From contig CAILLM010000002.1 of NCBI GenBank assembly GCA_903835075.1, forward strand, positions 16,920 through 80,919: a DNA stretch of 64,000 nt, written 5' to 3'. Under the pieces are notes generated by a model. The model did not search any database and was not told the DNA's origin. It saw only the letters and a program-made list of their open reading frames with translations. Source of the stretch: Candidatus Staskawiczbacteria bacterium. GTDB taxonomy: Bacteria; Patescibacteriota; Minisyncoccia; Minisyncoccales; Staskawiczbacteraceae. Every line of letters begins with the position of its first letter. Within the stretch, counting starts at the first letter, position 1. Shown here one piece after another: positions 7,892 to 55,377 of the stretch. The translations under genes were made by a program, and so were the position numbers.

Positions 7892-8881
7892 CTATTGGAC
7901 TGTTTTTTCTGAGATTAATTGGTTGAGTATTTTTTTGACCTCATTCATGCTGGCTTGGTCAATTATGGAAATGGGAATAATTTTTTTTCCCCCTTCGGGC
8001 GATCTGCCGAAGGCAGAAAATTCTTTTTTGATTTTTATAACAGTTTTTTCATCAATCAAGTCACTTTTACTTAAAAATATGTATTCTTTTTTATCTAAAA
8101 GTAAATCTCCATAATTCTCTAGCTCGTGTCTGACGGTTTTATAGTCAAGCAGGGGGTTATTAGAGTCAGCAGAAATAAAATGAAACAAAATCTTTGTACG
8201 CTCTATGTGTTTTAAGAATTTCACGCCAAGCCCCTTGCCTGTTGAGGCGCCCTCTATGAGCCCAGGTATGTCAGCCAGTATTAGGTCGTAATATACGCCC
8301 AAATTTGGCTCTAGGGTGGTAAAAGAATAATTAGCCACCTTTGCTTGCGCTTTAGTAAGTTCGTTTAACAGGCTTGATTTCCCTACGTTTGGTAGGCCTA
8401 CAAAACCTACATCAGCTATCATTTTGAGTTCTAAGTGTAGTTCAAACTTTTCACCTGGTTTTCCTTCTTGAAATTGTCTTGGGCTGGTGTTGATTGCACT
8501 TCTAAAATACCAATTTCCTTTTCCGCCAATTCCACCCTTTGCAACTAACTCGCGTTGGCCAATTTTTGTGATTTCAATGTCTTTGTTTGTGGTAATATTG
8601 TGGCAAACCGTGCCTACTGGTACATGTAAAATAAAATCATCAGCATTACTACCATCGTGGAGTCCTGATTTCCCGTTTTCTCCATCTGGTGCGTTGTAGT
8701 CTTTTTTAAAACGAAAATGCCTTAAAGCTCCAAGGTCTGCGCATCCTTCCAAAAAAACGCTTCCACCAATTCCACCATTCCCGCCAGTTGGCCCTTTAAC
8801 AAATTTTATTTTACTAAAAGTTGACATGCCCTTTCCACCATGTCCAGCTGAAACAGTAATTTTTACATCATCTACCATCAT
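7892..8881 (-). CDS. obg: GTPase Obg/CgtA
   Basis: Gly-rich Obg fold (GGNGGIGGS, GGIGGKGN) and G domain GLPNVGKSS, DIPGLIEGA. Carries an in-frame GC-rich palindrome at 7992-8013. Confidence 0.93.
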   Translation of the reverse strand: MMVDDVKITVSAGHGGKGMSTFSKIKFVKGPTGGNGGIGGSVFLEGCADLGALRHFRFKKDYNAPDGENGKSGLHDGSNADDFILHVPVGTVCHNITTNKDIEITKIGQRELVAKGGIGGKGNWYFRSAINTSPRQFQEGKPGEKFELHLELKMIADVGFVGLPNVGKSSLLNELTKAQAKVANYSFTTLEPNLGVYYDLILADIPGLIEGASTGKGLGVKFLKHIERTKILFHFISADSNNPLLDYKTVRHELENYGDLLLDKKEYIFLSKSDLIDEKTVIKIKKEFSAFGRSPEGGKKIIPISIIDQASMNEVKKILNQLISEKTVQ

Positions 8882-10126: not shown

Positions 10127-10920
10127 TTTATTAGAAAATACCCAATTATTATTATGCCCAATATAATTCTGTAGTATCCAAACACTTTAAAGTTGTGTTT
10201 TTGAACATAATTCATGAAAAATTTTATTACCACTAGGGCTGTAAAAAAAGAAACAATAAGCCCTATTATTAATACGGAAAGCTGGCTTGGATTGAGTAAG
10301 GCGTGATATTTTAACAAGCTGTATCCGGTAGCAGCTATCATTGTTGGAATTGCCAGAAAAAATGAAAATTCTGTTGCTACTAATCGCGAAGTGCCAAGAA
10401 GCAGTGCGCCAATTATTGTAGCTCCAGATCTTGATGTGCCAGGAATCATGGACAGGCATTGAATTAATCCAATAAAAAATGCTGTTTTATAGCTAAGATC
10501 TTTTATAGAAGTAATTTTTGCATTGTGATTTAATTTTTCAACAATTAAAATAATTATTCCGCCAATTAGTAAGGCAATGGCAACCGTCCAGGGATTAAAT
10601 AATTTTTCTTCAATTTTGCTAGCAAACAATGCTCCAACTATTATGGCAGGTAAAACGCCAACCAATGTTTTGAGCCAAAGACTTTTGTCTTGCCAAAGTC
10701 GTTTCTCTCCCTTCGGGAGATGTCCCGTAGGGACACAGAAAAAGAAAACCACTGCCAAAATGGCGCCAAGTTGTATAACTACATCAAAAAGTAAAGTAAA
10801 ATTTTTATCAAAAGTGATAAATTGATTTACCAAAATTAAGTGCCCCGTAGAAGAAATAGGCAAAAATTCAGTGAAACCTTCCACCACACCCAAAATTATT
10901 GCAGTAATATAGCTAAGCAT
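10123..10920 (-). CDS. uppP: Undecaprenyl-diphosphatase
   Basis: BacA/UppP motifs (EFLPISSTGHL, PGTSRSGATI). Contains an in-frame GC-rich element at 10706-10733. Confidence 0.9.
   Translation of the reverse strand: MLSYITAIILGVVEGFTEFLPISSTGHLILVNQFITFDKNFTLLFDVVIQLGAILAVVFFFCVPTGHLPKGEKRLWQDKSLWLKTLVGVLPAIIVGALFASKIEEKLFNPWTVAIALLIGGIIILIVEKLNHNAKITSIKDLSYKTAFFIGLIQCLSMIPGTSRSGATIIGALLLGTSRLVATEFSFFLAIPTMIAATGYSLLKYHALLNPSQLSVLIIGLIVSFFTALVVIKFFMNYVQKHNFKVFGYYRIILGIIIIGYFLIK
10706..10733. repeat. GC-rich double mini-hairpin element, in-frame in uppP
   Basis: tctcccttcgggagatgtcccgtaggga. 26 of 27 nt are identical to 25984-26010. Encodes PTGHLPKGE within an otherwise AT-rich gene. Confidence 0.85.
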
Positions 10921-19274: not shown

Positions 19275-19444
19275 GTTTTCTATTATATAATAAAATTATC
19301 AAAATGTCAAATTATGCCCTTCGACTTCCTTCGGCGCGGCTCAGGGCAGGTCGCTCAGGGTTGTTTTACTTTTTATTTATTATTTAGAAAGTAAAACAAA
19401 AAAAGACCGCTGGGTGTACCCTGCGGTTTGGGGTCGTTGTGGTT

Positions 19445-22152: not shown

Positions 22153-23562
22153 CTAGCCGGCACAATATTTTACAAATAGTTTTTGGCGTTTGGAAATATC
22201 TGAAGAAGATATTTTCTTTAATTCAGCAGAGGCTTGTTTAGATAATTTTTTAAAATGTTTATCAACTTCTAGTGCTTTTGGGTTAACACAAAAAGCTAAA
22301 TTATTTATTCCTAACAAGTTTAAGCCCTTTAAAGATTTCAATCGTGACAACGCAACATAACCCATACCAGCTAAAAAACATTTAGATAAATCCATTTCTG
22401 CCGAATCTAAGTTCATGCCTTGAGACTTGTGAACAGTAATTGCCCAAGCAAGCCGTAAAGGAATTTGTGAAATTCCAGCCACAATAGTGGTTTTGTCGCC
22501 CCCGATAGTCGCGTCTGGCTCTTCAATTGTCCAATCAGTGTAAGTAACAGTAATTCTTTTGCCTTCTTCGGTTTCTACAACTGGTAAATCAGCTGCAACA
22601 AAGTCCACAACTTTTCCTTGGGTTCCATTTACATAACCTGCTTCAAAATTATTTTTAATAAACATAACATGCGCACCCTCTTTTAAAATTAATTTTTCTG
22701 GGGCCAAGCAACTTTTTTTCAAAATGTCTGAAACAACCGGATTTCCACGAAAAGTCATTTGGTAGCGATACTCTTTACCCTTTATTTTATTTAATTCGGT
22801 GTAATTTATGGTGTCGACATCTATGTTGTGTGTATACAACTTGGTCATTATTTTTTCCCTTCGACTACGCTCATGGCCTAGGTTGTTGCGTTCTAAAAGC
22901 AACAACTCTCGGGATTTTTCAGCTTCATTTTCTCTTATGTGGTTTAAAATTTTGGTAAGTTTTTTATCTTTTGTTCGGTATTGTTCATCTAAATAACAAA
23001 TTTTCATTTCCATTTTTTTCCAAATATCAGACTCCGTAACAAATCCTTGCTTATTTTTATTTGCATCAAAAAGTTCACCCTGGGTTATATTTTCATGCTT
23101 GCCCTGAGCGGAGTCGAAGGGTCTATAAACCGGCGGAAGTTGAAAAAAATCTCCAGAGCAAACAACTTGCATCCCGCCAAAAGGGCGCGGATTACGTTTT
23201 ATAAATTGGCAAATTTTATTTACTGCTTCAAACTGGCTGGCTTTAATCATTGATATCTCATCAATAATTAAAACATTTGTGTTTTTTATTCTTTTTCGTA
23301 AATATCCACGTTCGCATGCTTTTTTAATTTCTGAATCATCAAGCTCATCACGAATTCCAAGCCCGCTCCACGAATGTAAAGTAACTCCGCCCATATGAGT
23401 GGCAGCAATTCCAGTGCTAGCAGTTACAGAAACTACAATATTATTCTTTTTTAAATATTGAATATATTTGTTTAATAAAAAAGTTTTTCCGCTTCCCGGC
23501 GGACCTGTTAAAAAAGTATTGTATCCCGATTTTAATATGTCTAGCGCTTCTTTTTGTTTCAT
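22153..23562 (-). CDS. PIF1/RecD-like ATP-dependent DNA helicase
   Basis: GPPGSGKT, LIIDEISMI, TVHKSQG. Start set at MKQKEAL. Two in-frame GC-rich elements at 22858-22883 and 23101-23121. Confidence 0.85.
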   Translation of the reverse strand: MKQKEALDILKSGYNTFLTGPPGSGKTFLLNKYIQYLKKNNIVVSVTASTGIAATHMGGVTLHSWSGLGIRDELDDSEIKKACERGYLRKRIKNTNVLIIDEISMIKASQFEAVNKICQFIKRNPRPFGGMQVVCSGDFFQLPPVYRPFDSAQGKHENITQGELFDANKNKQGFVTESDIWKKMEMKICYLDEQYRTKDKKLTKILNHIRENEAEKSRELLLLERNNLGHERSRREKIMTKLYTHNIDVDTINYTELNKIKGKEYRYQMTFRGNPVVSDILKKSCLAPEKLILKEGAHVMFIKNNFEAGYVNGTQGKVVDFVAADLPVVETEEGKRITVTYTDWTIEEPDATIGGDKTTIVAGISQIPLRLAWAITVHKSQGMNLDSAEMDLSKCFLAGMGYVALSRLKSLKGLNLLGINNLAFCVNPKALEVDKHFKKLSKQASAELKKISSSDISKRQKLFVKYCAG

Positions 23563-25906: not shown

Positions 25907-26660
25907 AAATTATGTTTGCCCATAGCGCATAACCTGTGGCTGATGGGTGAAATAAATCTTTTGAATAATATGAATTTGATTTTTCTCCCTTCGGGAGATC
26001 TCCCGTAGGGTGATTAAATTCTTCTTTGGCAGGAGAATATAAATCAATATAACTTAAATTATATTTTGTTGCCAAATTTTTAATTATTTTGTTGAATTGA
26101 TTTGTTTTAAAATCAAAATAATAGTTCCAAGGAGGTAGAATTAAGGTATTTGCTCCTATATAGGGAATATTAATTAAATAAATTTTAGCAGAAGTTTTTG
26201 TGGTTAGTTGTTTTATGATTTCTTCATAATTTTTTTGAAATTCTGATTTTGAAACAAAGTTGTGGATGTCATTAACTCCAATTAGTAGAGTAGCAACATT
26301 AGGGTTGCTGGCAACTGCTTGTGGAAGAAAAAAATTTTTTACGTCAATGCTTTTGTAGCCAAGCTCGGAAAGATTTTTTAAGGTTATGCTGTTATTTTGA
26401 GCAAGGTTTTTGGCAATTAAATATGGGTAAGTTTGTTGGTAGTTTTCAGTACCTGCTCCTGCCGTTAGACTGTCACCCATAGCGATGTAAACTAGATTTG
26501 TTTTACTAATATTGTTGCTAATTGTATAGGTTTGGCTTTTTTCTGGAGTTTTTAAGTTGGCATTATGAATTTCTTGGTAAATGTAGGCGTAAGCTCGATT
26601 CAAATAAACCACAGATGTAGTTAAAATTAATAAAATAATAAATAGAGCAATTTTTTTCAT
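25887..26660 (-). CDS. SGNH/GDSL hydrolase
   Basis: AMGDSLTAG, GVNDI and DLFHPS blocks. Start set at MKKIALF (signal peptide). In-frame GC-rich element at 25984-26010. Confidence 0.8.
   Translation of the reverse strand: MKKIALFIILLILTTSVVYLNRAYAYIYQEIHNANLKTPEKSQTYTISNNISKTNLVYIAMGDSLTAGAGTENYQQTYPYLIAKNLAQNNSITLKNLSELGYKSIDVKNFFLPQAVASNPNVATLLIGVNDIHNFVSKSEFQKNYEEIIKQLTTKTSAKIYLINIPYIGANTLILPPWNYYFDFKTNQFNKIIKNLATKYNLSYIDLYSPAKEEFNHPTGDLPKGEKSNSYYSKDLFHPSATGYALWANIIYANFNK
25984..26010. repeat. GC-rich double mini-hairpin element, in-frame in the SGNH hydrolase
   Basis: tctcccttcgggagatctcccgtaggg, a near-identical copy of 10706-10733. Encodes PTGDLPKGE. Confidence 0.85.
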
Positions 26661-33402: not shown

Positions 33403-33778
33403 AACAAAATTATATGCCAGGGCGTTAGCAGAAATTCTTTCTAAAAAGGGAGGAGTTTCGGCTACGGAAGAAAAGAGAGTGGTAAGTAATTTTGTTAAAC
33501 TTATAATTGCCGCTGGATTAGAAAAAAAATTAAAAGAAATTTTGAGTTTGGCGGAAGATTTTATTTTGGCAAATCAAGGAAAAAGAAGAATAACTTTTGA
33601 AACAGCCAGAACAACAACCGCCAGCCAGAAAAAAATATTAGATGGTATTGTAAATAAAGGAGACATTGTAAAAGAAAAAATTAGCCCAGAATTAATAGCG
33701 GGCATAAAAATAATAATTAACGATTCAAAGCAATTAGATTTGTCATTATTAGCAAAATTGCAAGAGGTATTTACATAA
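33389..33778 (+). CDS. atpH: F0F1 ATP synthase subunit delta (short, 129 aa)
   Basis: Operon position. OSCP-like C-terminus LIAGIKIIINDSKQLDLSL. Confidence 0.7.
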   Translation: MKQNKTKLYARALAEILSKKGGVSATEEKRVVSNFVKLIIAAGLEKKLKEILSLAEDFILANQGKRRITFETARTTTASQKKILDGIVNKGDIVKEKISPELIAGIKIIINDSKQLDLSLLAKLQEVFT

Positions 33779-33781
33779 AGG

Positions 33782-33866
33782 CGATACCAATCTACGAATA
33801 AACATACCAATAATACGAATATAAAAATTAGTATAATTAGTATGAGATTAGTATATTAGTATCGCG
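33782..33866. repeat. ~90-bp AT-rich repeat, copy 1 (upstream of atpA)
   Basis: gcgataccaatctacgaataaacataccaataatacgaata...attagtatcgc. A second copy lies at 35941-36031. Confidence 0.85.
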
Positions 33867-35404: not shown

Positions 35405-35458
35405 AAATTTGCAAAAAAAATCCCTGTAGTAGTACAGGGCATGCGAGCAGTCATCTGT

Positions 35459-35656
35459 TCAACTGTCAATTTTGTAAGCCACTATTATGGTTGAAAAACC
35501 AGCTAACATGGAAGCAAGGCTCGCCACGACTGGTGTCCAAAAACCAATTTCTGGCCAAAACTTAATTGGTGGATGAATTATAACTGCGAAGATCAGCAAT
35601 AGAACGCCGGAAAGCCATAATAGCACAACGCCCAAATCGATTGTCCAGTGTCTCAT
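35459..35656 (-). CDS. Small two-TM membrane protein (65 aa)
   Basis: Antisense to the atp operon. ATGA overlap with the upstream 65-aa ORF. Higher G+C. Confidence 0.5.
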   Translation of the reverse strand: MRHWTIDLGVVLLWLSGVLLLIFAVIIHPPIKFWPEIGFWTPVVASLASMLAGFSTIIVAYKIDS

Positions 35657-35850
35657 GACTTTGTCCTTCTAGTAATTTCTAATGCCCAAAGGAAGGAATA
35701 TCCCAAAGAAAATCCGACTGAGTCTATTACCATTGATTCAGTGTTGAATGGCATTTTGAATAACAGTCGAATTATTACCAGGATTAAGAAGCCCAAAATA
35801 GCTAGTGGCAGGGTTAAATTTAACAGCCACCATTTCAAAAAAGTTTTCAT
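35653..35850 (-). CDS. Small two-TM membrane protein (65 aa)
   Basis: First gene of the antisense pair, with its own promoter at 35901-35929. Confidence 0.5.
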   Translation of the reverse strand: MKTFLKWWLLNLTLPLAILGFLILVIIRLLFKMPFNTESMVIDSVGFSLGYSFLWALEITRRTKS

Positions 35851-35900
35851 AGCGTTTCAGGAGGTTTGATTAACAAGGAGCTACGAGCTCTCGTATAAAA

Positions 35901-35929
35901 ATATTATAACTATTATAAAAAATTGTCAA
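35901..35929 (-). promoter_or_regulatory. Sigma-70 promoter for the antisense small-protein pair
   Basis: On the - strand: TTGACA, 17 nt spacer, TAATAT. Confidence 0.6.
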
Positions 35930-35940
35930 GAATAATAACA

Positions 35941-36031
35941 GCGATACCAATCTACGAATATACATACCAATTATACGAATACGGAAATTATTAGTATCAT
36001 TGGTATGCGATTAGTATATAATTAGTATCGC
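35941..36031. repeat. ~90-bp AT-rich repeat, copy 2 (upstream of atpG)
   Basis: Aligns with 33782-33866 over its full length, with a few substitutions and small indels. Confidence 0.85.
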
Positions 36032-36045
36032 TTTCAGCGAAGCAC

Positions 36046-37020
36046 ATGGAATCACCACAGAACATAAAGAAAAGACTGAGGTCAGTCAATAATATAAACA
36101 AAATTACTAAGGCCATGGAAATGGTTGCGGCTACTAAAATGCGTAAATCGCAGGAAATAGCCCTAGCCAGCAGGCCTTATGCTTTTGCGGCACTTGATTT
36201 TTTGGCAACAGTTTCCAACTTAGATTCGGCAAAATTGCCAGAATTGTTTCACGATAGGACAAAAAATCCTTCGACAAGCTCAGGACCGCGGGTTTTATTT
36301 GTTTTGGTGTCTTCTGACAAGGGCTTGGCGGGAGCATTTAACAGTTCGGTTTTTAGAAAATTCGCCGCCCATTTTGAAAAATGGGCGAGCCTCGCCCCAA
36401 AGGGGCGGGAGGAGCAATTGTTTGTCGCGATTGGTGAAAAAGCAAATCAGTATTTATCAAAAAAGGGTTACAACGTTGTAAAAAAATTTACAGCAGTTGG
36501 CGACCATACCACAGTAGAGCAAGTTAAGCCAATCGCTGATTTTATTGTTGAAGGTTTTTTGGCGGAAAGCTGGGACAGGGTAGTTGTTGTTTCAACACAT
36601 TTTAGAAGTGCATTAAAACAAGAACCGCACGTACGCACAATCTTGCCTATTGATTTTGATCATATTGCAGAAACAATAAAAGAAATTATTCCCGAGCGCG
36701 GAAAATTTGCTGATTTGATAAAAGAACAAAACATAAGTTTTATACCAAGCAAAACCGATTCAAGGGATTATTTAATAGAACCGTCGGCAGAAGAAGTTTT
36801 AAATAATTTGGCAAAGCATTTATTTTTTATGCAAATGTACCATATAATTTTAGAAGCAAACGCATCCGAACATTCCGCCCGCAGAATGGCCATGAAAACA
36901 GCTTCTGACAACGCAAAAGATTTAGGAGACAGATTAAATTTACAATATAATAAATCAAGACAGTCGAGAATAACTACAGAAATTAGTGAAATCTCGGCGG
37001 GTGCTGAGGCATTAAGTTAA
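36046..37020 (+). CDS. atpG: F0F1 ATP synthase subunit gamma
   Basis: ITKAMEMVAATKMRK N-terminus and ITTEISEISAGAEAL C-terminus. In-frame GC-rich elements at 36267-36291 and 36384-36410. Confidence 0.93.
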   Translation: MESPQNIKKRLRSVNNINKITKAMEMVAATKMRKSQEIALASRPYAFAALDFLATVSNLDSAKLPELFHDRTKNPSTSSGPRVLFVLVSSDKGLAGAFNSSVFRKFAAHFEKWASLAPKGREEQLFVAIGEKANQYLSKKGYNVVKKFTAVGDHTTVEQVKPIADFIVEGFLAESWDRVVVVSTHFRSALKQEPHVRTILPIDFDHIAETIKEIIPERGKFADLIKEQNISFIPSKTDSRDYLIEPSAEEVLNNLAKHLFFMQMYHIILEANASEHSARRMAMKTASDNAKDLGDRLNLQYNKSRQSRITTEISEISAGAEALS

Positions 37021-38653: not shown

Positions 38654-38660
38654 AATTTTA

Positions 38661-38696
38661 AAAGCCGTGCTGAGCTCGTCGAAGTACGGCTTTTTG
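38661..38696 (+). terminator. atp operon terminator built from a CTGAGC...CGAAG repeat unit
   Basis: gccgt-gctgagctcgtcgaag-tacggc hairpin followed by T5. Confidence 0.65.
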
Positions 38697-38824
38697 CTTG
38701 TCCTGAGCCTGCCGAATGGGTTGCAAAAAAAATAAAATGTGGTAAATTATATTTATCCGCTCAAGCGAATTGAATCGGACAGCATTTTTACAACAGAATA
38801 ATGGAAAAACCGGAGGAGAAATAA

Positions 38825-41092: not shown

Positions 41093-42796
41093 ATGGAACA
41101 AGAAATTAAATTATGCCAAAATTGTAAAAAGGACTTTACTATAGAGCCTCAAGATTTTGATTTCTATGAAAAAATGAAAGTGCCAGCTCCAACGTTTTGT
41201 CCGGAATGTAGGTTTCAACGTCGCATAATGTTTCGCAATGAAAGGACGCTTTATAAGCGAAAGTGTGATTTGTGTGGCAAGGATGTGGTGACAATTTTTT
41301 CTTTAGATTCAAAATTGATTGTGTATTGCCAATCGTGTTGGTGGTCGGACAAATGGGACGATGGTGAATATTTTTTAGATTATAACCCAGAAAAACCGTT
41401 TTTTGAGCAAATGATTGAATTGCAGAAAAAAACTCCGCATATGGCTTTAGTGAGTGAATATGCAACATTGATTAACAGTGATTATGTAAATCACGCAGGA
41501 GGGCTTAAAAATTGTTATTTAATCTTTAACGCTGATTTTTGTGAAAATGTTTTATACTCAACAGTAGTTGTTCGAGTTAAAGATTCTTTGGATTGCCATA
41601 TGGTTGGCGAATCAGAGCTTATGTATGAAGACATTGATAGCACGGGTTATAAGCTATTTTTCTCCGAAAGTTGCACAAAATGTAGTGAATCTTATTTTTT
41701 AAAAAGTTGCATTGGTTGTGATAATTGTTTTGGTTGCATTAATTTAAGAAATAAAAAATACTGCATTTTTAATCAGCAATTTACGCGAGAAGAATATTTT
41801 GAAAAAATTAAGGAATACAAACTTAACAGTCATAGTGAATTGTTGAAGATTAGAAAAATAGTCGATGATTTTTGGTTGAAATATCCTAATAAATTTATGC
41901 ACAAAGACGCCCAGTGCGTCAATGTTTCTGGGGAATATGTTTTTCGTGCAAAAAATGCTTTAAACTGTTATCAGGCGCGCGAGCTGGAAGATGCTCGTTA
42001 TTGTCAGTTTATAACAATGCCACCGGCTAAAGATATTTATGATCTTACCGAGTGGGGGATGGGTGTTCAGCGGGTAGTAGATGTCACGGGCGTTGGCGAT
42101 GGGGCTGACATGGTCAAATTTAGCATGAATGCCTGGCATCAAGGAACTATGGAGGTGGAATATGGGATGTATAATATATCATGTCAAAATGTTTTTGGTT
42201 GCATTAACCAGAAGAAAAAACAATATAGTATTTTAAATAAGAAGTATTCGTCGGAGGAATATTTTGCTTTGCGTGCGCAAATCATAGAAGACATGGAAAA
42301 AAATCCTTATGTTGATTCTGTGGGAAGAATTTGGCATTATGGAGATTTCTTGCCATATGACTTAAGCCCATTCACATATAACGAATCTCAAGCAATACAA
42401 TATTACCCGCTTTCTAAAGAAGAAATTTTAAAAAAGGGATGGACATGGCGTGAGCCAGTTACGAGCAGTCACGTTATAACAATACCGGCCAATAAAATCC
42501 CCGACAATATTAATGAAACACAAGATTCAATATTAAGAGAAATTTTAGGATGCGATTTGTGCGGTAAAGCTTTTAAAATAACTTCGGCTGAGTTCGCGCT
42601 TTTAAAGCGTTTTGGATTTTCTGTTCCACATTTTTGCTCGGATTGTCGGCATATGGAGCGCATTAAACGAATTAACCCGCCTAAATTATGGAATCGTAAT
42701 TGTGCTAAATGCAACACAGCATTTCAAACATCTTACGCGCCCGATAGGCCGGAAATTGTGTATTGCGAAGGCTGTTACAATAACGAAGTAAATTAA
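41093..42796 (+). CDS. Cys-rich multi-zinc-ribbon protein, paralog A
   Basis: N-terminal CQNCKKDFTIEPQDFDFYEKMKVPAPTFCPECRFQRR (zf-trcl-like). Central repeats of the GCINLRNKKYCIFN type. C-terminal double ribbon ending RPEIVYCEGCYNNEVN. Confidence 0.75.
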   Translation: MEQEIKLCQNCKKDFTIEPQDFDFYEKMKVPAPTFCPECRFQRRIMFRNERTLYKRKCDLCGKDVVTIFSLDSKLIVYCQSCWWSDKWDDGEYFLDYNPEKPFFEQMIELQKKTPHMALVSEYATLINSDYVNHAGGLKNCYLIFNADFCENVLYSTVVVRVKDSLDCHMVGESELMYEDIDSTGYKLFFSESCTKCSESYFLKSCIGCDNCFGCINLRNKKYCIFNQQFTREEYFEKIKEYKLNSHSELLKIRKIVDDFWLKYPNKFMHKDAQCVNVSGEYVFRAKNALNCYQARELEDARYCQFITMPPAKDIYDLTEWGMGVQRVVDVTGVGDGADMVKFSMNAWHQGTMEVEYGMYNISCQNVFGCINQKKKQYSILNKKYSSEEYFALRAQIIEDMEKNPYVDSVGRIWHYGDFLPYDLSPFTYNESQAIQYYPLSKEEILKKGWTWREPVTSSHVITIPANKIPDNINETQDSILREILGCDLCGKAFKITSAEFALLKRFGFSVPHFCSDCRHMERIKRINPPKLWNRNCAKCNTAFQTSYAPDRPEIVYCEGCYNNEVN

Positions 42797-42848
42797 TATA
42801 GAAACAGCCGAAGTCCTGAGCCGTGCCGAAGGACGAAACTTGCTACCA
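42746..42848. repeat. 103-nt near-identical block (3' end of paralog A plus downstream)
   Basis: Matches 44560-44662 with only 3 mismatches, whereas the gene bodies are strongly diverged. Confidence 0.85.
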
Positions 42849-42942: not shown

Positions 42943-44610
42943 ATGGAACAAGATGCGCGTAATTGTCAGAATTGCAAAAGCGAGTTTGTAATTGAGCCCG
43001 ATGATTTTGCGTTTTACGAAAAAATGAAGGTACCAGCACCAACATTTTGCCCAGAGTGCAGGAGACGAAGAAGATTGTCTTGGCGAAATGATTTTGTTTT
43101 TTATAATCGTAATTGTGATTTGTGCAAAAGAAACATAATTTCAATTTATTCTCCGGATAGCCCTCAAGTAATTTATTGCAATAAATGTTGGTGGGGTGAT
43201 GGCTGGGATCCAAAAAAATATGCACAAGATTTTGATTTTAGCCGTACTTTTTTTGAGCAATTTAAAGAATTTCGCCTAAAAGTGCCAACTCTTGCTTTAA
43301 CTAATGACAATAATATAGGAAGTGAAAATTGTGAATATACGCAAAATTTTGCTTTGGGTAAAAATTGCTATATGACAATGGTTTCTTGGAAGGTTGAAAA
43401 TTGTATGTACACTTGTTATGCCGCTGAAACAAAAGACACAGTGGATTCAATGGGAATTTTTAGCACTGGCGAAGGTCTTTACGAGGTAATGTATAGTGAA
43501 AAATGTTTTGGATGTAGAAATATCTATGGTTCTTCAAGTCTTATGAATTGCGCCTATTGTACAGAATGCGTGGGCTGTGAAAATTGCTTTATGTGTATAA
43601 ACTTGCGGAATAAGCAATATTATATTTTAAATAAACCCTATTCCAAAGAGGAGTACGAAAAGATTATAAATTCTTATAAATTAGAAACGCTTAGCGGAAG
43701 CGAAAAAGCCAGAGTTGAATTTGAGGCTTTTTTACGCACTCAGCCAAGGAGATTTGTTTCTTCAAGGAATTGCGTTAATTGCACGGGAAACAACATAATT
43801 AATAGCAAAAATGCAAAAAATGTTTTTCATTGTCGCAGATCGGAAGATTCTAAATATTTAGAGAATGGCGATACCCAAAAAGATAGTTATGACTTGTGCG
43901 TTGGTGGGGAACTTTCAGAATGTTATGAGGGTATAACTCCAGATAACTCAAACAAAGCATTGTTTTCTATTTATACATGGAAATGCATGGATGTAGCTTA
44001 TTCGGAATTTTTGCAATCTTCAAAAAATTGTTTTGGCAGTGTTGCTTTAAAACATGGTGAATATTCAATTTTTAATAAACAATACACCAAAGAAGAATAT
44101 TTTAAGTTAAAAGATGAAATTATAGAGCATATGAAAAAAAGTGGAGAATGGGGGGAGTTTTTTCCAATAAATTACTCACCATTTTCCTATAATGAATCCA
44201 TGGCAATGGTAGATTTTCCTTTAACAAAAGAAGAAGCTTTGATAAAAGGTCTTAATTGGCAAGATAATATTCAGGAAACCAAGGGCAAAACAACTTTAAA
44301 AAATATTCCAGATAGCATAAATAATGTTGAGGATTCAATTTTAAATGAAATTTTAGAATGTTCTGTTTGTGAAAGAAATTATAAAATAGTTACTGATGAG
44401 CTGGCTTTTTATAGAAAATGGAAAATTCCAGTACCTACAAAATGCTTTTTTTGTAGAATTAAAAAAAGACTAGAAATTCGCGGGCCATCTAGGCTTTGGC
44501 ATAGGAATTGCATGAATAAAGGTTGCACAAATGAATTTGAAACCAGCTATGCGCCCAACAGGCCGGAAATTGTGTATTGCGAAGGCTGTTACAATAACGA
44601 AGTAAATTAA
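42943..44610 (+). CDS. Cys-rich multi-zinc-ribbon protein, paralog B
   Basis: Same architecture as 41093-42796. N-terminal CQNCKSEFVIEPDDFAFYEKMKVPAPTFCPECRRRRR. Confidence 0.75.
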   Translation: MEQDARNCQNCKSEFVIEPDDFAFYEKMKVPAPTFCPECRRRRRLSWRNDFVFYNRNCDLCKRNIISIYSPDSPQVIYCNKCWWGDGWDPKKYAQDFDFSRTFFEQFKEFRLKVPTLALTNDNNIGSENCEYTQNFALGKNCYMTMVSWKVENCMYTCYAAETKDTVDSMGIFSTGEGLYEVMYSEKCFGCRNIYGSSSLMNCAYCTECVGCENCFMCINLRNKQYYILNKPYSKEEYEKIINSYKLETLSGSEKARVEFEAFLRTQPRRFVSSRNCVNCTGNNIINSKNAKNVFHCRRSEDSKYLENGDTQKDSYDLCVGGELSECYEGITPDNSNKALFSIYTWKCMDVAYSEFLQSSKNCFGSVALKHGEYSIFNKQYTKEEYFKLKDEIIEHMKKSGEWGEFFPINYSPFSYNESMAMVDFPLTKEEALIKGLNWQDNIQETKGKTTLKNIPDSINNVEDSILNEILECSVCERNYKIVTDELAFYRKWKIPVPTKCFFCRIKKRLEIRGPSRLWHRNCMNKGCTNEFETSYAPNRPEIVYCEGCYNNEVN

Positions 44611-44662
44611 TATAAAAACAGCCGAAGTCCTGAGCCGTGCCGAAGGGCGAAACTTGTTACCA
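44560..44662. repeat. 103-nt near-identical block (3' end of paralog B plus downstream)
   Basis: See 42746-42848. Confidence 0.85.
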
Positions 44663-47886: not shown

Positions 47887-47960
47887 TGCGGGATCGTCTA
47901 ATGGTAGGACACGTCCCTCTGAAGGATGTTATCTAGGTTCGAGTCCTAGTCCCGCAGCCA
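47887..47960 (+). tRNA. tRNA-Gln (CTG)
   Basis: Hand-folded. Acceptor tgcggga/tcccgca (U1-A72), anticodon loop ctCTGaa, T-loop ttcgagt, encoded CCA. Confidence 0.85.
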
Positions 47961-48031
47961 TCACATGCTAAGTCAGGTGACTGAGATGCATGACGAAAAA
48001 AGCATGGTTGCGACCCGCAGCTTTGGAAATA

Positions 48032-48079
48032 AAACAAACTAAAAAGGCATAGAATTTTCCATGCCTTTTTAGTTTGTTT
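48032..48079. terminator. Long perfect hairpin at the end of the RT gene
   Basis: aaacaaactaaaaaggcat / atgcctttttagtttgttt: a 19-bp perfect stem overlapping the RT stop codon. Confidence 0.7.
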
Positions 48080-49604
48080 ATAAGGTAACTTTTTGGGCAT
48101 TATCAAATTGAGACTTAAGATCATCAAGCACCTTTTTCTTTTTAGTTAATGCGCGCATTCTGATTATACTGCTGCTAGCTTCTCCTAACTGTCCTAGACT
48201 ATGCCCGGAATGATAAATTTCAACTTCATCTATAATTATATATCGGTCATGTGATTCAAAGCGTCCTTTATCTTTCAGACTTTCTCTGCAATCAATTTGT
48301 ATTTCTGGATGAAGATTAATGAGTTTTTTCAATTCACCGATACAATCTTCATATTTCTTTTTATTCTCTTGTGATATTAAGAGCTTAAAATTTATTAGCT
48401 TATTTTTAGACAGTATGCTCTCCAATAGGCTAACGATAGTCCCCTTCAAATAATTATCAATAATAAAGATTTCTCGCGTGGCACAAAGGAATATCGTTTC
48501 CAGAAAATTCAACCCCTTATAAAGTTCACCCCGTACAAAATGCTCTTCTTCCGGCCAGTTTTTTATTGGAATAATTTCAAATATTTTTTTTTCAGCTAGG
48601 CTGTTAAATTTTTCTGCGAGTATTCTATATGTATTGTCTCCTTTAGTTTTAATCTGTTTTATGAAATTTATTTTACCCTTAAGGGATTCATAGAAATCTG
48701 TACAATATTTATTTTGGTATTGTGCGCTGGCATTTTTTATTCCGAATTTTTTCCAAATATGTAGCATCATTCGTACCTCTTTTATGAACTCTCTCTTAAC
48801 ATTAGGAAACTTATTAACAATAAGACCAGTGACTTCTTGTCTTTCCGTATAAAAGCGGATCCTTGTTTTGTTAGGATTTATTTCAAATCCATTTCCAACA
48901 ACTATCTCATTTAATTTTGGTCCAGCAATCCATTCGCTAGCACCACCCTCAAGCATATTCTGAGAAAATCCGTTTCTATTATTAGTTGAGAATACTATAT
49001 CGTCAGCGTATCTGGAGTATATGCAATGCTCTTCGTACGCAAAGTGCTGTAATTGATAGTCTAATTTAGAACAAATCATGTTAGAAATTATCGGTGATGT
49101 CGGAGCGCCTTGAGGTAAAACACCCTTATGACAACAGAAACCAGCTATTATTGTAGCGCCATTTTTAGATAAGCCATATGGAAAAGCTTGCAATATGCCA
49201 CGAATTCTTCCAAAATGAATCGTCGGAAAAAAATCTTTTAGATCGATGTTTAGCAATGCTTTATGACGTATGTGTTTCTCGGCATTTGTGATGATGCTTT
49301 TTCCTTGTCGAAAACCGTGTACTGAAGCCCTGCCGATATATATTAAGGAGAGTACATGAGCCAATCTACGTTGAATAAATTTTAATTTATATTTTGGAGA
49401 TAGAATTTGTCTTTTTTCACCAGATTTTTTATTTATAAAAAATTCCGTATAATGTTTTTCTTGATATCTTGTTTCGCCAAATATTCTTTCTAAAGCATAA
49501 GCATTAAATTCAAGTAAGTCAGCAAGCGTCCCAAAATTACTCACTCTGTGAAATTTTTCAATTAATTCATCGTCAGTTGCTTTAAATGATGGTCGCATAT
49601 GCAT
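48078..49604 (-). CDS. Retron-type reverse transcriptase fused to a C-terminal PLD-like (HxR-x4-D) domain
   Basis: RT motifs: ITNAEKHIRHK, DLKDFFPTI, LPQGAPTSPIISN, YSRYADDIVFS, RQEVTGLIVN. About 190 extra C-terminal residues contain FIIDNYL and SHDRYIIIDEVEIYHSGHSL. Start moved to MHMRPSF because the upstream part of the ORF overlaps the a2 repeat. Confidence 0.85.
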   Translation of the reverse strand: MHMRPSFKATDDELIEKFHRVSNFGTLADLLEFNAYALERIFGETRYQEKHYTEFFINKKSGEKRQILSPKYKLKFIQRRLAHVLSLIYIGRASVHGFRQGKSIITNAEKHIRHKALLNIDLKDFFPTIHFGRIRGILQAFPYGLSKNGATIIAGFCCHKGVLPQGAPTSPIISNMICSKLDYQLQHFAYEEHCIYSRYADDIVFSTNNRNGFSQNMLEGGASEWIAGPKLNEIVVGNGFEINPNKTRIRFYTERQEVTGLIVNKFPNVKREFIKEVRMMLHIWKKFGIKNASAQYQNKYCTDFYESLKGKINFIKQIKTKGDNTYRILAEKFNSLAEKKIFEIIPIKNWPEEEHFVRGELYKGLNFLETIFLCATREIFIIDNYLKGTIVSLLESILSKNKLINFKLLISQENKKKYEDCIGELKKLINLHPEIQIDCRESLKDKGRFESHDRYIIIDEVEIYHSGHSLGQLGEASSSIIRMRALTKKKKVLDDLKSQFDNAQKVTL

Positions 49605-49610
49605 ATCTTT

Positions 49611-49755
49611 TTGGGGGCAAAGATATATTCTCACTTTGCGCATGAACATAAGCAAACACTATAACTGCGCCTAGCACGCCACAGGCGTGATCCTATGAAC
49701 TTTTTAAAAATCGCCGCGAATACACAGCGTAATCAATATTTATCTTTGCCCCCAA
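49611..49755 (-). ncRNA. Candidate retron msr-msd non-coding RNA bounded by a1/a2 inverted repeats
   Basis: A perfect 15-bp inverted repeat, ttgggggcaaagata (49611-49625) and tatctttgcccccaa (49741-49755), brackets 115 nt immediately 5' of the RT start. Internal hairpin cacgcc-tgt-ggcgtg. Putative promoter TTGTAT, 17 nt spacer, TAATAT just upstream. Confidence 0.55.
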
Positions 49756-49839
49756 TTTATATTACTAAGCTATATAAATCAATACAAGTCCTATGTGAAA
49801 CTTAGTAAAAAGGTGCATATAATATACGTGTCTTTTTAG

Positions 49840-51156
49840 TTATTCCAATATGATATTTTTATCTTTTAAGATTAGTTTACTTTTTAAGAAGAACAGCAGT
49901 TCGCGTTTTTCAATAAGCGTTCCTTCTCGTAGAAGATATTTTGTATAATTTCTCACGTCGATATCTGAGTTGTGGGTTTCTTTTTTGTGACCTAGTACAC
50001 CAATCCTGAATTTATTAAATCTTGCCAATTCGTTTTCAATTGCATTTTTAACTCCAAGCTCATCCAAGTCAATTTTGTCCATTAAGTTTATAAGCTCTTC
50101 TATTAAGCTCGGCTCATTGATGGCGGGATTTTTGCAGTCTATATTTCTGGCCTTACTACAAAAGTAGTATACGTGGCGATTTACTCCGCCATCTTTAAGC
50201 TTTTTGAATTTCTCGTCAGCAGATATTCCTGATCCACAATATCCACATTTAATCAGCTTGGTGAAGGCGAATTCCTTTGATTCTGTTTTCGGTACAAATT
50301 TTTCGTTTAGGGTTAGTTGCACCTTATCGAATAATTCTTTGCTAATTATTGGTGTATGCTTTCCGTTGTACCAATTGCCACTGCCAATAGGATATTCAAA
50401 CTCACCGTAATAGAATGGATTCCTTAGAATTAGATAAATATTACCAAGCACCAAAGATTTTCCAGTTTTGGTTTTAAATCCTACATTAATGAGCCAACGA
50501 TATGTTTTCCTGCCCGACCATTGTTCGTTAGCAACTTTCTCGAACATCTGCTTTATATAAGGAGCTCGTTTTGGATCTATTCTGCATTGGCATTTTTTAT
50601 CAACGTGCTTTTCATTTAAATATCCAGTTGGTGCTACGCCTGGGCGATACCCCATTTCACAACGGGTTTTTAGTCCACGCTTTACATTGAGGGCCTTATT
50701 GTCATTTTCCAGTTTCGCCTGGCTTCCGAGAATCATTAGCAAAAATTTCTCGTTTGGATTATTGGTAAACCTTTGTCCGTGAGTCCTAATTTCAATGAGT
50801 AATTTTTGATCCATTAAATCTACCACTGAACCCAAGTCCCCTGCGTTTCGGCTGAGCCTGTCAGGCGCCCATGTCAGAATAGCATTATATTTTCCTTCGC
50901 GAATTTCAGTAATCATTTTATTAAAAATGATTCTTTGCCCAACTTCCTTGGATGAGTGAGCTTCGCGCTTAATGTCTATGATGTTTAGGCTATCCCGTTG
51001 TGCCAGCGTCAGCATCTCCTTAACCTGCGATTCTATAGATAATGCTTGTTTATCCTCAGCCTCCGTAGATTTCCTTGCATAGAGACAATATTTGAGTATT
51101 GGTGCGACTATAACGGGGGATTGCCGACTATTTTGTGTTGTTGCTATTTGTTGCAT
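49840..51156 (-). CDS. Large serine recombinase
   Basis: N-terminal resolvase domain (YARKSTEAEDKQALSIESQ), recombinase domain and zinc ribbon (CGYCGSG...YYFCS). 438 aa. Confidence 0.85.
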   Translation of the reverse strand: MQQIATTQNSRQSPVIVAPILKYCLYARKSTEAEDKQALSIESQVKEMLTLAQRDSLNIIDIKREAHSSKEVGQRIIFNKMITEIREGKYNAILTWAPDRLSRNAGDLGSVVDLMDQKLLIEIRTHGQRFTNNPNEKFLLMILGSQAKLENDNKALNVKRGLKTRCEMGYRPGVAPTGYLNEKHVDKKCQCRIDPKRAPYIKQMFEKVANEQWSGRKTYRWLINVGFKTKTGKSLVLGNIYLILRNPFYYGEFEYPIGSGNWYNGKHTPIISKELFDKVQLTLNEKFVPKTESKEFAFTKLIKCGYCGSGISADEKFKKLKDGGVNRHVYYFCSKARNIDCKNPAINEPSLIEELINLMDKIDLDELGVKNAIENELARFNKFRIGVLGHKKETHNSDIDVRNYTKYLLREGTLIEKRELLFFLKSKLILKDKNIILE

Positions 51157-51301
51157 AATTTTTTGTTTAGTTGTTAATATTCCATATTCGACCTTTGCAA
51201 TGACAAGGATGACGCAACCGCGCTAAGGAGTCCAGACCCCGTCAGTTGGTAAGGCTTCGCTTTACGAGGAGCTTTTTTCGGTATAAAATAAAGTAATTAA
51301 T

Positions 51302-52054
51302 ATGCCAATTTTTAATGATTTAAATTTAAATAATTGGAAGGATTCAGAAATTTGGACCGATAGTCTTTGGTTAATTCCTGAAAGAGATAAAACAGGAAAA
51401 CATGACGGATTTTATCATGGTAACTTTGTTCCCCAAATACCTCGTCAACTAATCTTGAGATATACAAAAAAGAACGATGTTATTTTTGATCCTTTTGTTG
51501 GTAGCGGGACAACTGCTTATGAGGCTGAAAGTTTGAGTAGACATTTTATTGGTATTGATATACAGGAAGCTTTAGTTGAGAAATTAAAATCAAGAGTAGA
51601 TAATAATAAATATTTTTCAGAGATTATTCTTGGCGACAGTGCAAAAGAACTTGTTTATGATAAAGTGAATGAAATTTTAGAGAAACAAAAAAAGAAAAAT
51701 ATTAATCTGGCAATTTTACATCCTCCTTATGCCGATATAATTAAATTTAGTGATTCGAAGGACGATTTATCAAACGTAAAATCGCTAAAAGAATTTTTAG
51801 ATAAATTTGCGGAGGTTCTTAAGAATACGATTAAAATTCTTGAAAATGGGAGGTATTTAGCAATTATTATTGGTGATAAATATTCTGCCGGTCAGTGGAT
51901 ACCATTATCTTTTTATTGTATGAATGAAGCTCAAAAATTAGGATTAACACTCAAAAGCGTTATAATAAAGAATATGGCAGGTAATCGTGCCAAACAAAAT
52001 AAGGAAGCGATTTGGCGGGTAGCGCAGAATACACTTGGGTTTGTGACCCAGTAG
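51302..52054 (+). CDS. N6-adenine/N4-cytosine DNA methyltransferase, probably altered or truncated at the 3' end
   Basis: Motif I DPFVGSGTTAYEA and motif IV ILHPPYADI. The reading frame runs into the IMPase fragment. Confidence 0.7.
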   Translation: MPIFNDLNLNNWKDSEIWTDSLWLIPERDKTGKHDGFYHGNFVPQIPRQLILRYTKKNDVIFDPFVGSGTTAYEAESLSRHFIGIDIQEALVEKLKSRVDNNKYFSEIILGDSAKELVYDKVNEILEKQKKKNINLAILHPPYADIIKFSDSKDDLSNVKSLKEFLDKFAEVLKNTIKILENGRYLAIIIGDKYSAGQWIPLSFYCMNEAQKLGLTLKSVIIKNMAGNRAKQNKEAIWRVAQNTLGFVTQ

Positions 52055-55077: not shown

Positions 55078-55377
55078 ATTGTATTATTATATCACTTAAG
55101 TTTTGAAACTTCTACTACCATTTTATGAAAAGTTGTGGTATATTAATAACATAAAGGGTCGCGGATAAAATTATTTTAAACATAACCAAAAAAACTATGC
55201 CAACATGGGCTAACGTAAAAAGACTCGGGAGAAGAGTTAAAAAAAGAAAAAGAACTAAGCTTAACAAGAGAAAAAAATAGCTATGATTTTTAAAAACCGG
55301 CAAATTGTCGGTTTTTTGCTTGCACTGAGCCCGTGGAAGTGCTTGTGCTGAGCCTGTTGAAGTATTAGAATAAATAT

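Follow-up and report, generated by a model that had tools for sequence, protein, structure and literature searches.

What is the short GC-rich hairpin that recurs along an otherwise AT-rich (31-41% G+C) 64-kb stretch of a Candidatus Staskawiczbacteria contig (hereafter the window), both between genes and in frame within genes? A first-pass annotation of this DNA had described a dispersed repeat whose hairpin units, with a conserved core, lie in intergenic DNA and within the genes for ATP synthase gamma (atpG) and a PIF1-like helicase. Each part of that description is upheld by the analysis reported here. The best-named relatives of both proteins are from Candidatus Staskawiczbacteria (Parcubacteria, candidate phyla radiation (CPR)), and the window genes that were scanned are ordinary housekeeping genes, except for a small island adjoining tRNA-Gln. 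We consider it probable that the repeat belongs to the selfish, non-autonomous DNA elements as a family of very small hairpins, akin to REP (repetitive extragenic palindromic) sequences, the small dispersed repeats (SDRs) of cyanobacteria, and the Rickettsia palindromic elements (RPEs), and that it spreads by a trans-acting route.

A covariance model was trained on 18 aligned units and run over the window. It recovered ten clean units, in line with the previous count of at least ten copies in 64 kb, and together with pattern matches it located every site listed earlier (Table 1). The units follow the plan (3-4 bp stem)-TTCGRC-N2-3-GCTCA-(complementary stem) and score 19.4-33.7 bits, with the next-best window match at 10.9 bits (E 1.3). 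Besides these, the window has a decayed coding copy and, surrounding one of the units, an outer shell. The consensus form originally given, ccttcgacNNNgctcagg, is not literally matched by the atpG copy, where the spacer is 2 nt. The pattern CCTTCGRC-N0-8-GCTCAGG matches the window five times against 0.00 matches expected from dinucleotide shuffles, and the form with a 3-nt spacer and up to two mismatches matches five times against 0.02 expected. In all of the DNA fetched for comparison (stretches of other contigs, labeled with L-numbers), the perfect core occurs 465 times, compared with 6 times in reversed-sequence controls. The G+C content of the units is 40-69%, against 31-41% for the window. 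The family is thereby confirmed as real and non-random, and the enrichment over composition that had been anticipated is evident.

Table 1 Units of the hairpin repeat in the window, with the genes of the tRNA-Gln island.
Feature	Position	Strand	Details
Nested double unit	19317-19360	+	outer CCC-TTCGAC (19317-19325) ... GCTCA-GGG (19353-19360); inner CC-TTCGGC-GCG-GCTCA-GGG (19328-19346)
Inner unit of nested pair, covariance-model bounds	19324-19349	+	29.2 bits
Decayed helicase copy	22495-22518	-	PDATIGGD; hot spot 3
CCC-TTCGAC-TAC-GCTCA-TGG in PIF1-family helicase gene (gene on minus strand)	22854-22879	+	24.6 bits; encodes GHERSRREK; hot spot 2
CCC-TTCGAC-TCC-GCTCA-GGG in helicase gene	23099-23124	-	31.8 bits; encodes PFDSAQGKH
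TCC-TTCGAC-AA-GCTCA-GGA in atpG	36264-36288	+	33.7 bits; adds 7 codons (about 36265-36285, NPSTSSG)
Terminator-like hairpin and U-run directly after atpC	38660-38695	+	11-13-nt loop is the element core
Unit in atpC terminator, minus-strand reading TTCGAC-GA-GCTCA	38665-38689		28.4 bits
CCCA-TTCGGC-AG-GCTCA-GGAC	38698-38722	-	29.4 bits; centre of T-run/A-run inverted repeat downstream of atpC terminator
GTCC-TTCGGC-ACG-GCTCA-GGAC	42811-42836	-	30.8 bits; begins 15 nt past stop codon of first Cys-rich paralogue
Copy of the 42811 unit	44625-44650	-	29.3 bits; carried in 148-nt segmental duplication, 87% identity
Two adjacent same-orientation units, GCAC-TTCCAC-GG-GCTCA-GTGC and TAC-TTCAAC-AG-GCTCA-GCA	55320-55367	-	19.4 and 29.8 bits
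The same pair by unit	55320-55344; 55343-55367	-	after hairpin/T-run, upstream of DNA-alkylation-repair gene
Retron-type reverse transcriptase with fused C-terminal domain of unknown type	48078-49655	-	best PADLOC matches retron RT types XI, XII, I-C
Large serine recombinase	49840-51156	-	island by tRNA-Gln
Type II-like DNA methyltransferase	51302-52054		island by tRNA-Gln

The anatomy of the unit is clearest in the 274 secondary copies, which are those that the search pattern had not selected. Their loop opens with TTCGAC (80%) or TTCGGC (10%), continues with two purines (AG, AA) or less often three bases, and ends with GCTCA (88%). The three pairs that close the loop are Watson-Crick in 85, 86, and 74% of these copies, as compared to 48, 36, and 31% with shuffled partners; since C-G, G-C, and T-A are all frequent among them, the covariation is true. 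Stem length peaks sharply at 3-4 bp. Window stems differ among copies (CCC/GGG, TCC/GGA, GTCC/GGAC, GCAC/GTGC, and GCCGTAC/GCACGGC with one mismatch), and the flanks reported as self-complementary are complementary yet variable from copy to copy. Phage contig L047 repeats this pattern on its own. Its eight co-oriented copies have a near-constant loop, six share the same ACCGA tail, and the stems (CCC, AGC, CAC, AAC, GTC) are always complementary.

Outside the stem, the 3' side carries subfamily-specific tails (CGAACGG, CAGGC/CAAGC, TGACA, ACCGA) and the 5' side has no conserved tag, which makes the unit directional. A subfamily of their own is formed by the CPR copies, in which TTCGGC and 3-nt spacers are more frequent and the tail is GGRCAR. 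The commonest non-CPR tail, GCTCAGG(A/G)CGAACGG (e.g., L026, L210, L240), may have 14 bases in common with the 5' end of bacterial 16S rRNA just past primer 27F, possibly by chance. The pentanucleotide GCTTG precedes four of the ten window units; as a target it is no more than suggestive, since some of these bases could be part of the element. Several RNA motifs were compared by eye and dropped: the hammerhead core (no UGA follows CUGA), the kink-turn (no three-base bulge followed by GA), the tRNA T-loop or D-arm, and domain 5 of group II introns.

Units are also found in company. Among 492 units, 23% are in inverted doublets, 11% in tandem, and 3% nested, the last being 14 units with an inner unit that has its own complementary stem, e.g., GG[TG..CA]CC in L093. 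Adjacent units in the window are tandem or nested and none are inverted. The site at 19317-19360 does hold two units, as first described, but they are nested and not in tandem: an outer CCCTTCGAC...GCTCAGGG surrounds an inner CCTTCGGC-GCG-GCTCAGGG. The pair sits between a minus-strand terminator and the promoter-like site of a DEAD-box helicase gene, ending 6 nt upstream of that TTGACA-17-TATAAT site (window 19275-19316). At L325 14000-14060, the TTGACA-17-TATAAT site is kept and other GC-rich CGAAG mini-hairpins occupy the same place. Units had likewise been listed after each of two zinc-ribbon paralogues, and both are present (42811, 44625). They lie in one 148-nt segmental duplication and therefore represent a single event, not independent insertions. 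The duplication comprises the 3' ends of the two tandem paralogues (41093-42796 and 42943-44610) and the following 60 nt; the proteins are ~560 aa long, with repeated Cys-rich segments and a weak C-terminal match to a treble-clef zinc finger. In seven fetched loci (L219, L242, L282, L315, L294, L316, L066), one half-site is multiplied, e.g., GACAAGCTCAGGAC three times, or five TTCGAC halves are followed by four GCTCA halves, or regular tandem arrays with 23-46-nt periods occur. The element seems prone to local amplification.

The coding copies show that the element comes and goes. The peptides assigned to them in the first-pass annotation (NPSTSSGPR in atpG, PFDSAQGKH and HERSRREK in the helicase) are encoded as claimed. 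When window atpG is aligned with 26 relatives, NPSTSSG stands out as seven extra residues between the N-terminal helices and the first strand. The window DNA reads AAA/AAT CCT TCG ACA AGC TCA GGA CCG/CGG, and L201, L202, and L121 are uninterrupted there. The short form of atpG is found in 110 of 120 orthologues and the remaining ten have a longer segment at exactly that place. At least seven of these ten segments are clear translations of the element's nucleotide motif, in one frame (PSTSSG, PSTGSG, PVTGTG, PSVGSGQA) or another (LRQGSG, LRQGFG). Carriers are scattered, and for six of the eight examined the nearest relative is without the insert. The copy at this site in L204 (AACCC-TTCGAC-GG-GCTCA-GGGTT) has a stem unlike that of the window. 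The empty allele AAAAAA/GTTTT is a small A/T inverted repeat.

Three insertion hot spots, with copies in both orientations, lie in the PIF1 helicase. Among 79 aligned homologues, PFDSAQGKH is seen only in the window and one 96%-identical relative. Where the window has GHERSRREK, the other orthologues show GPERSRRE, two copies in tandem, or a copy in the opposite orientation (TSPRLRG); where it has PDATIGGD, others have PFDAVQGK or PFDKAQGG, and L325 has nothing. ATP synthase alpha (atpA) provides a further hot spot after EVLxIE, filled in L203 and L202 and empty in the window and L201. L203 carries the element there (AHSASSGQA), and L202 a different GC-rich insert (IDGEPASAKASAR). Most orthologues are without the segment, and the coding copies are therefore insertions and not conserved ancestral residues; as judged from the alignments, they are lineage-specific. 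A location in surface loops had also been named as a point to check. In the AlphaFold model of gamma, of moderate confidence (mean predicted local distance difference test score, pLDDT, 63), the insert lies in the coil 69-81 that precedes strand 82-88, the first strand of the globular domain. The helicase model is poor (pLDDT 55) and places all three insert sites in low-confidence loops, which is as far as it goes.

Filled and empty sites were seen in spacers as well, so that relatives differ in presence and absence both there and in genes. The unit at 38665 had been proposed as the atp terminator, and its core is the loop of a hairpin followed by a U-run after atpC. The window hairpin has a 12-bp stem with UUUUU and starts 7 nt past the atpC stop codon; this unit has the properties of an intrinsic terminator. 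Relatives all have a plain terminator here, with loops of 4-6 nt where the window has the 13-nt core. A simple terminator scan missed this hairpin because its loop exceeds the 8-nt limit of the scan. Further downstream of atpC, L202 (TTTTTGCTTT/ACAAAAAG) and L203 (TTTTTTTG/ACAAAAAAA) are empty, and between the same anchors the window has a single unit and L201 a nested pair. After the gene for an RRM protein, the window is empty (TAA/TTA) and L325 has two units between TAA and TTA. Filled sites are thus at inverted-repeat centres, in a terminator loop, at hairpin tips, or inside another copy. A preference for inverted-repeat centres and hairpin tips is suggested by these few cases, about five evaluable sites including nesting. 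At L325 18715-18770, a perfect unit (ATCC-TGAGC-TA-GTCGAA-GGAT) adjoins TCC-TGCGAAGCTTA-GGA, which resembles a unit with its half-sites swapped.

The family is not special to the Staskawiczbacteria genome, since its loop recurs in many bacterial phyla as well as in contigs of viruses. The 17-mer CCTTCGACAAGCTCAGG of the atpG copy is present, without mismatch, in at least 120 viral contigs and at least 120 bacterial contigs, taken at one genome per species, from over a dozen phyla. Named hosts among the matches listed include Bacteroidota, Cyanobacteria, Alpha-, Beta-, and Gammaproteobacteria, Chloroflexota, Nitrospirota, Planctomycetota, NC10, Acidobacteriota, Armatimonadota, Verrucomicrobiota, Actinomycetota, and three CPR groups. 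Carriers include cultured isolates and span a G+C of 0.31-0.72. Abundance is patchy: ~2 good copies were found in 843 kb of unselected bacterial DNA around atpG, 1-3 per 20 kb in relatives of the window, and ten in the 64 kb of the window itself.

How does a family with this structure, with covarying stems, presence and absence in genes and spacers, nesting, and so wide a distribution, come to spread? In the reading that we favor, the unit is a free-sequence 3-4-bp stem that closes an asymmetric, near-invariant TTCGRC-N2-3-GCTCA loop, often with a short subfamily-specific 3' tail. It would multiply through insertion, mostly into intergenic DNA, with the centres of existing inverted repeats and hairpin tips, including terminator loops, as preferred targets. 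Insertion into the loop of another copy would yield nested units. Coding copies that add a multiple of three bases, are stop-free, and fall in a protein surface loop would survive as short in-frame peptides. By analogy with REP sequences and their RAYT transposases, IS200/IS605 ends, and integron attC sites, we infer that a structure-specific enzyme, supplied in trans and acting on folded, probably single-stranded DNA, recognises the element by its conserved loop.

Several observations weigh against this reading. All-against-all clustering of 2004 open reading frames (ORFs) from 240 copy-centred loci revealed no gene that recurs beside copies, with only phage structural genes recurrent, and no transposase was found among the 61 window ORFs scanned. 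Those ORFs do include a retron-type reverse transcriptase and a large serine recombinase, neither of them visibly connected with the element. Within one genome the stems vary, which simple copy-and-decay from a master would not predict; many true-breeding lineages, compensatory correction, or target-supplied stems are needed. Nearest-neighbour models give hairpins of 3-4 bp only marginal stability (as RNA 0 to -8 kcal/mol, as DNA 0 to -3.4 kcal/mol), the terminator excepted. The preference for palindrome centres comes from about five sites, and the recurrent coding hot spots may mirror selection for tolerated loops instead of targeting. No target-site duplication was seen where filled and empty sites were compared (atpG, helicase, atpC, and RRM loci). 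Strain-level polymorphism was not observed either: nine contigs with identical atpC carry identical copies. Seven of these match the window DNA at 99.98-100% and an eighth at 99.2%; the ninth, at 91.5%, is too short to be informative. With the copies identical throughout, the strain comparison is uninformative.

A bolder version, which we judge less likely than not, takes the 13-nt loop as the signature of one pan-bacterial mobile element of ~17-27 nt. Such an element would move as a folded single strand into hairpin tips and palindrome centres, its own included, with the 3-4-bp stem supplied by or matched to the target. It would depend either on a host function that is nearly universal or on an enzyme that is broadly transferred and encoded away from the copies. 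Essential proteins of streamlined CPR genomes would steadily acquire short peptide insertions from it.

Several other explanations were weighed. The hairpin could instead be a functional nucleic acid kept by selection, its loop binding a host factor as a terminator, mRNA 3'-end stabiliser, or regulatory site, with the coding copies incidental. One copy is indeed a hairpin with a U-run after atpC, and the presumed transcript carries all seven intergenic window units as UGAGC..GUCGAA. RNA of this strand is the better folded of the two (-15.2 vs -9.2 kcal/mol for the terminator, with an A.C mismatch becoming G.U), and by eye U-A, tandem sheared G.A/A.G, and G-C pairs could arise within the loop. 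An annotated Aggregatibacter small RNA (sRNA; RF02901) is built on the same motif, at a sub-threshold match. Nonetheless, the seven units amount to only four independent clusters, and in a wider low-GC sample orientation is even, both downstream of genes (25:24) and in coding sequence (24:21). Both orientations occur inside genes, the wobble asymmetry in the stem is inconsistent between positions, and none of the Rfam families scores at threshold. Close relatives that differ in presence or absence, nesting, tandem arrays, and patchiness are unlike a required module, and we judge this account unlikely. The lack of orientation bias relative to genes points to DNA and not RNA, and a DNA-level element absorbed by some terminators is favored. 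Other orientation measures are hard to read: pooled by GC skew, copies are biased 130:60, with window copies opposite and gene-strand effects not separable, and same-locus concordance is weak (201:159, from non-independent pairs).

Slightly less probable still is spread with no enzyme of its own, through polymerase template switching or short-patch gene conversion between hairpins, with quasi-palindrome correction keeping the stems complementary. Inverted-repeat centres and hairpin tips are known places of replication template switching, and filled sites are found at such places and in other copies. Half-site arrays with junction microhomology (GACAAGCTCAGGAC three times in L219; also L242, L282, and L315) resemble slippage, stems covary even inside the single contig L047, and neither the window ORFs nor the 240 loci yielded a transposase. 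What this account leaves unexplained is the near-invariance of a 13-nt asymmetric loop across phyla and across the whole G+C range; moreover, several empty coding alleles, e.g., helicase site 3, have no obvious pre-existing hairpin, and 3-4-bp stems are weak primers for switching. An RNA intermediate, where a transcribed copy is reverse-transcribed into a nick, appears improbable. Mobility of this kind was reportedly suggested for the cyanobacterial SDRs by Elhai and colleagues in 2008, which the element resembles in size and behaviour (21-27 nt, compensatory changes, self-nesting), and a reverse transcriptase is encoded in the window (48078-49655). However, this enzyme is retron-type and looks like a defence gene, in an island beside tRNA-Gln and a serine recombinase; the copies have no orientation bias relative to transcription and no poly-A or other marks of retro-insertion; and one reverse transcriptase common to so many host lineages is unlikely. 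Chance, compositional bias, or an assembly or adapter artefact we reject with near certainty. Units are short, and chance or genuine coding sequence probably accounts for some of the single matches in genomes of high G+C (a conserved phage gene in L022, L054, and L063; a FDKLRERFDKLRER repeat in Gordonia), but the shuffles and reversed controls, the covarying flanks, the in-frame copies within intact conserved genes, and identical copies in independent assemblies from different samples, with cultured isolates also among carriers, are decisive. Selfish DNA hairpins that spread in trans are the reading retained.

The island itself spans 47887-52054 and holds the reverse transcriptase, serine recombinase, and methyltransferase genes; a 185-nt gap upstream of the reverse transcriptase could be the site of a retron non-coding RNA. 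A second GC-rich palindromic family in the window, TCTCCCTTCGGGAGATCTCCCGTAGGG, consists of two adjacent mini-hairpins (7984-8014, 10702-10732, 25980-26010). All three copies are in frame in minus-strand housekeeping genes, those for Obg (AFGRSPEGGKK), BacA/UppP (VPTGHLPKGEK), and a GDSL lipase (HPTGDLPKGEK). An AT-rich block of ~90 nt is duplicated (86%) upstream of atpA (33775-33861) and of atpG (35935-36024). The atp operon is interrupted between these genes by a 640-nt gap (35405-36045) with small hydrophobic ORFs on the opposite strand.

If the favored reading is true, a unit little longer than a restriction site, its core conserved across phyla, colonises phages and genomes of 0.31-0.72 G+C with no visible transposase nearby, which would widen the notion of a mobile repeat; under the pan-bacterial version, few known mobile DNAs would be as small or as widely distributed. 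The conserved loop and free closing pairs point to a structure-specific recognition system for DNA (or RNA). Recurrent in-frame insertion into the same loops of ATP synthase alpha, gamma, and PIF1 helicase in strongly reduced genomes amounts to a natural test of what proteins tolerate. For annotation, alignments of CPR proteins are inflated and distorted by the element, which is mistakable for conserved protein sequence. Short ORFs that are spurious arise from it, as do spurious peptide motifs of the PSTSSG, FDKLRxG, LRQAQG, PExVEG, and LSLSKG kind, and it seeds at least one annotated sRNA family.

[quoted passage not shown] At Rfam gathering thresholds, the whole window yielded four tRNAs and no family covering the element. 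Permissive Rfam searches on the copies gave nothing relevant besides RF02901 (AaHKsRNA41, Aggregatibacter sRNA 41), whose consensus holds an inverted core doublet, CUGAgCUUGcCGAAG ... UUCGgCAAGcUCAg. The match is to a doublet in L049 at 27.6 bits, below the gathering score of 97, and RF02901 has no match in the window; unlike the element, it is a ~190-nt sRNA model from one genus.

REP sequences and REPINs are 20-40-nt GC-rich imperfect palindromes of high copy number, mostly intergenic and close to the ends of genes, that are mobilised by RAYT (Y1/HUH) transposases (PMC3116915, PMC3733652). The element is likewise a short GC-rich imperfect palindrome with many dispersed, non-autonomous copies (ten units of ~25 nt per 64 kb here), and its one-sided asymmetry recalls the unpaired tag on one side of REP sequences. 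Inverted doublets, typical of REPINs, make up 23% of units in other genomes, and none of those in the window. The differences are substantial. Flank profiles contain no GTAG or CGTC tag; a 13-nt loop is conserved and the 3-4-bp stem is free, where the REP stem is long and family-specific. The element is not confined to extragenic DNA, with in-frame copies (three clear, one decayed) in atpG and the helicase gene, and its core spans many phyla, whereas each REP family is specific to a species or genus. The window ORFs scanned include no RAYT gene, and none recurs beside copies in the 240 loci. Nor does the element behave as a MITE: no target-site duplication was found at the filled and empty sites compared, and no parent insertion sequence was seen.

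The RPEs are palindromic and lie in frame in unrelated, often essential genes, and are about 100-150 bp long, encode a conserved peptide of tens of residues, and are restricted to Rickettsia and relatives (PMC10969869, PMC1458961). The likeness is in the in-frame insertion into protein genes of a small-genome bacterium, with presence and absence among orthologues, and in positions that, for RPEs, are thought compatible with the protein fold. Units of the element differ in being 21-27 nt long and in adding 4-8 residues in various frames and orientations (PSTSSG, LRQGSG, FDxAQG, PERSRRE).

Folded DNA is recognised by its structure and a few bases at integron attC sites and IS200/IS605 ends, and IS1397 and group IIC introns target REP or terminator hairpins. 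As in attC, structure is conserved here while the paired sequence varies; as with IS1397 and group IIC introns, insertion is at hairpin tips or terminators; and the substrate would likewise be a DNA-level hairpin. They have known recombinases and larger cargo or longer sites, unlike the present case, where a site-like element multiplies alone.

Of the known repeats, the element appears to behave most like the SDRs. SDR1-8 of Nostocaceae, in the 2008 account of Elhai and colleagues, are said to be 21-27 nt long, to form hairpins with compensatory changes, to nest in themselves, and to encode no protein, and SDR5 reportedly sits inside the HIP1 palindrome. By that description, the two have in common a dispersed repeat of 21-27 nt, a hairpin with compensatory changes, no encoded protein, and nesting in their own copies (19317-19360 and 13 further cases), and SDR5 in HIP1 parallels insertion at an inverted-repeat centre. 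SDRs are reported as confined to one cyanobacterial subgroup (PMC5861425). The element is found in many phyla and viral contigs and has prominent in-frame insertions in housekeeping proteins. With a distribution so much wider than Nostocaceae, it is at most a different family of the same kind. It is a very small palindromic repeat of the REP/SDR kind, set apart by a loop shared across phyla and by in-frame copies in essential genes.

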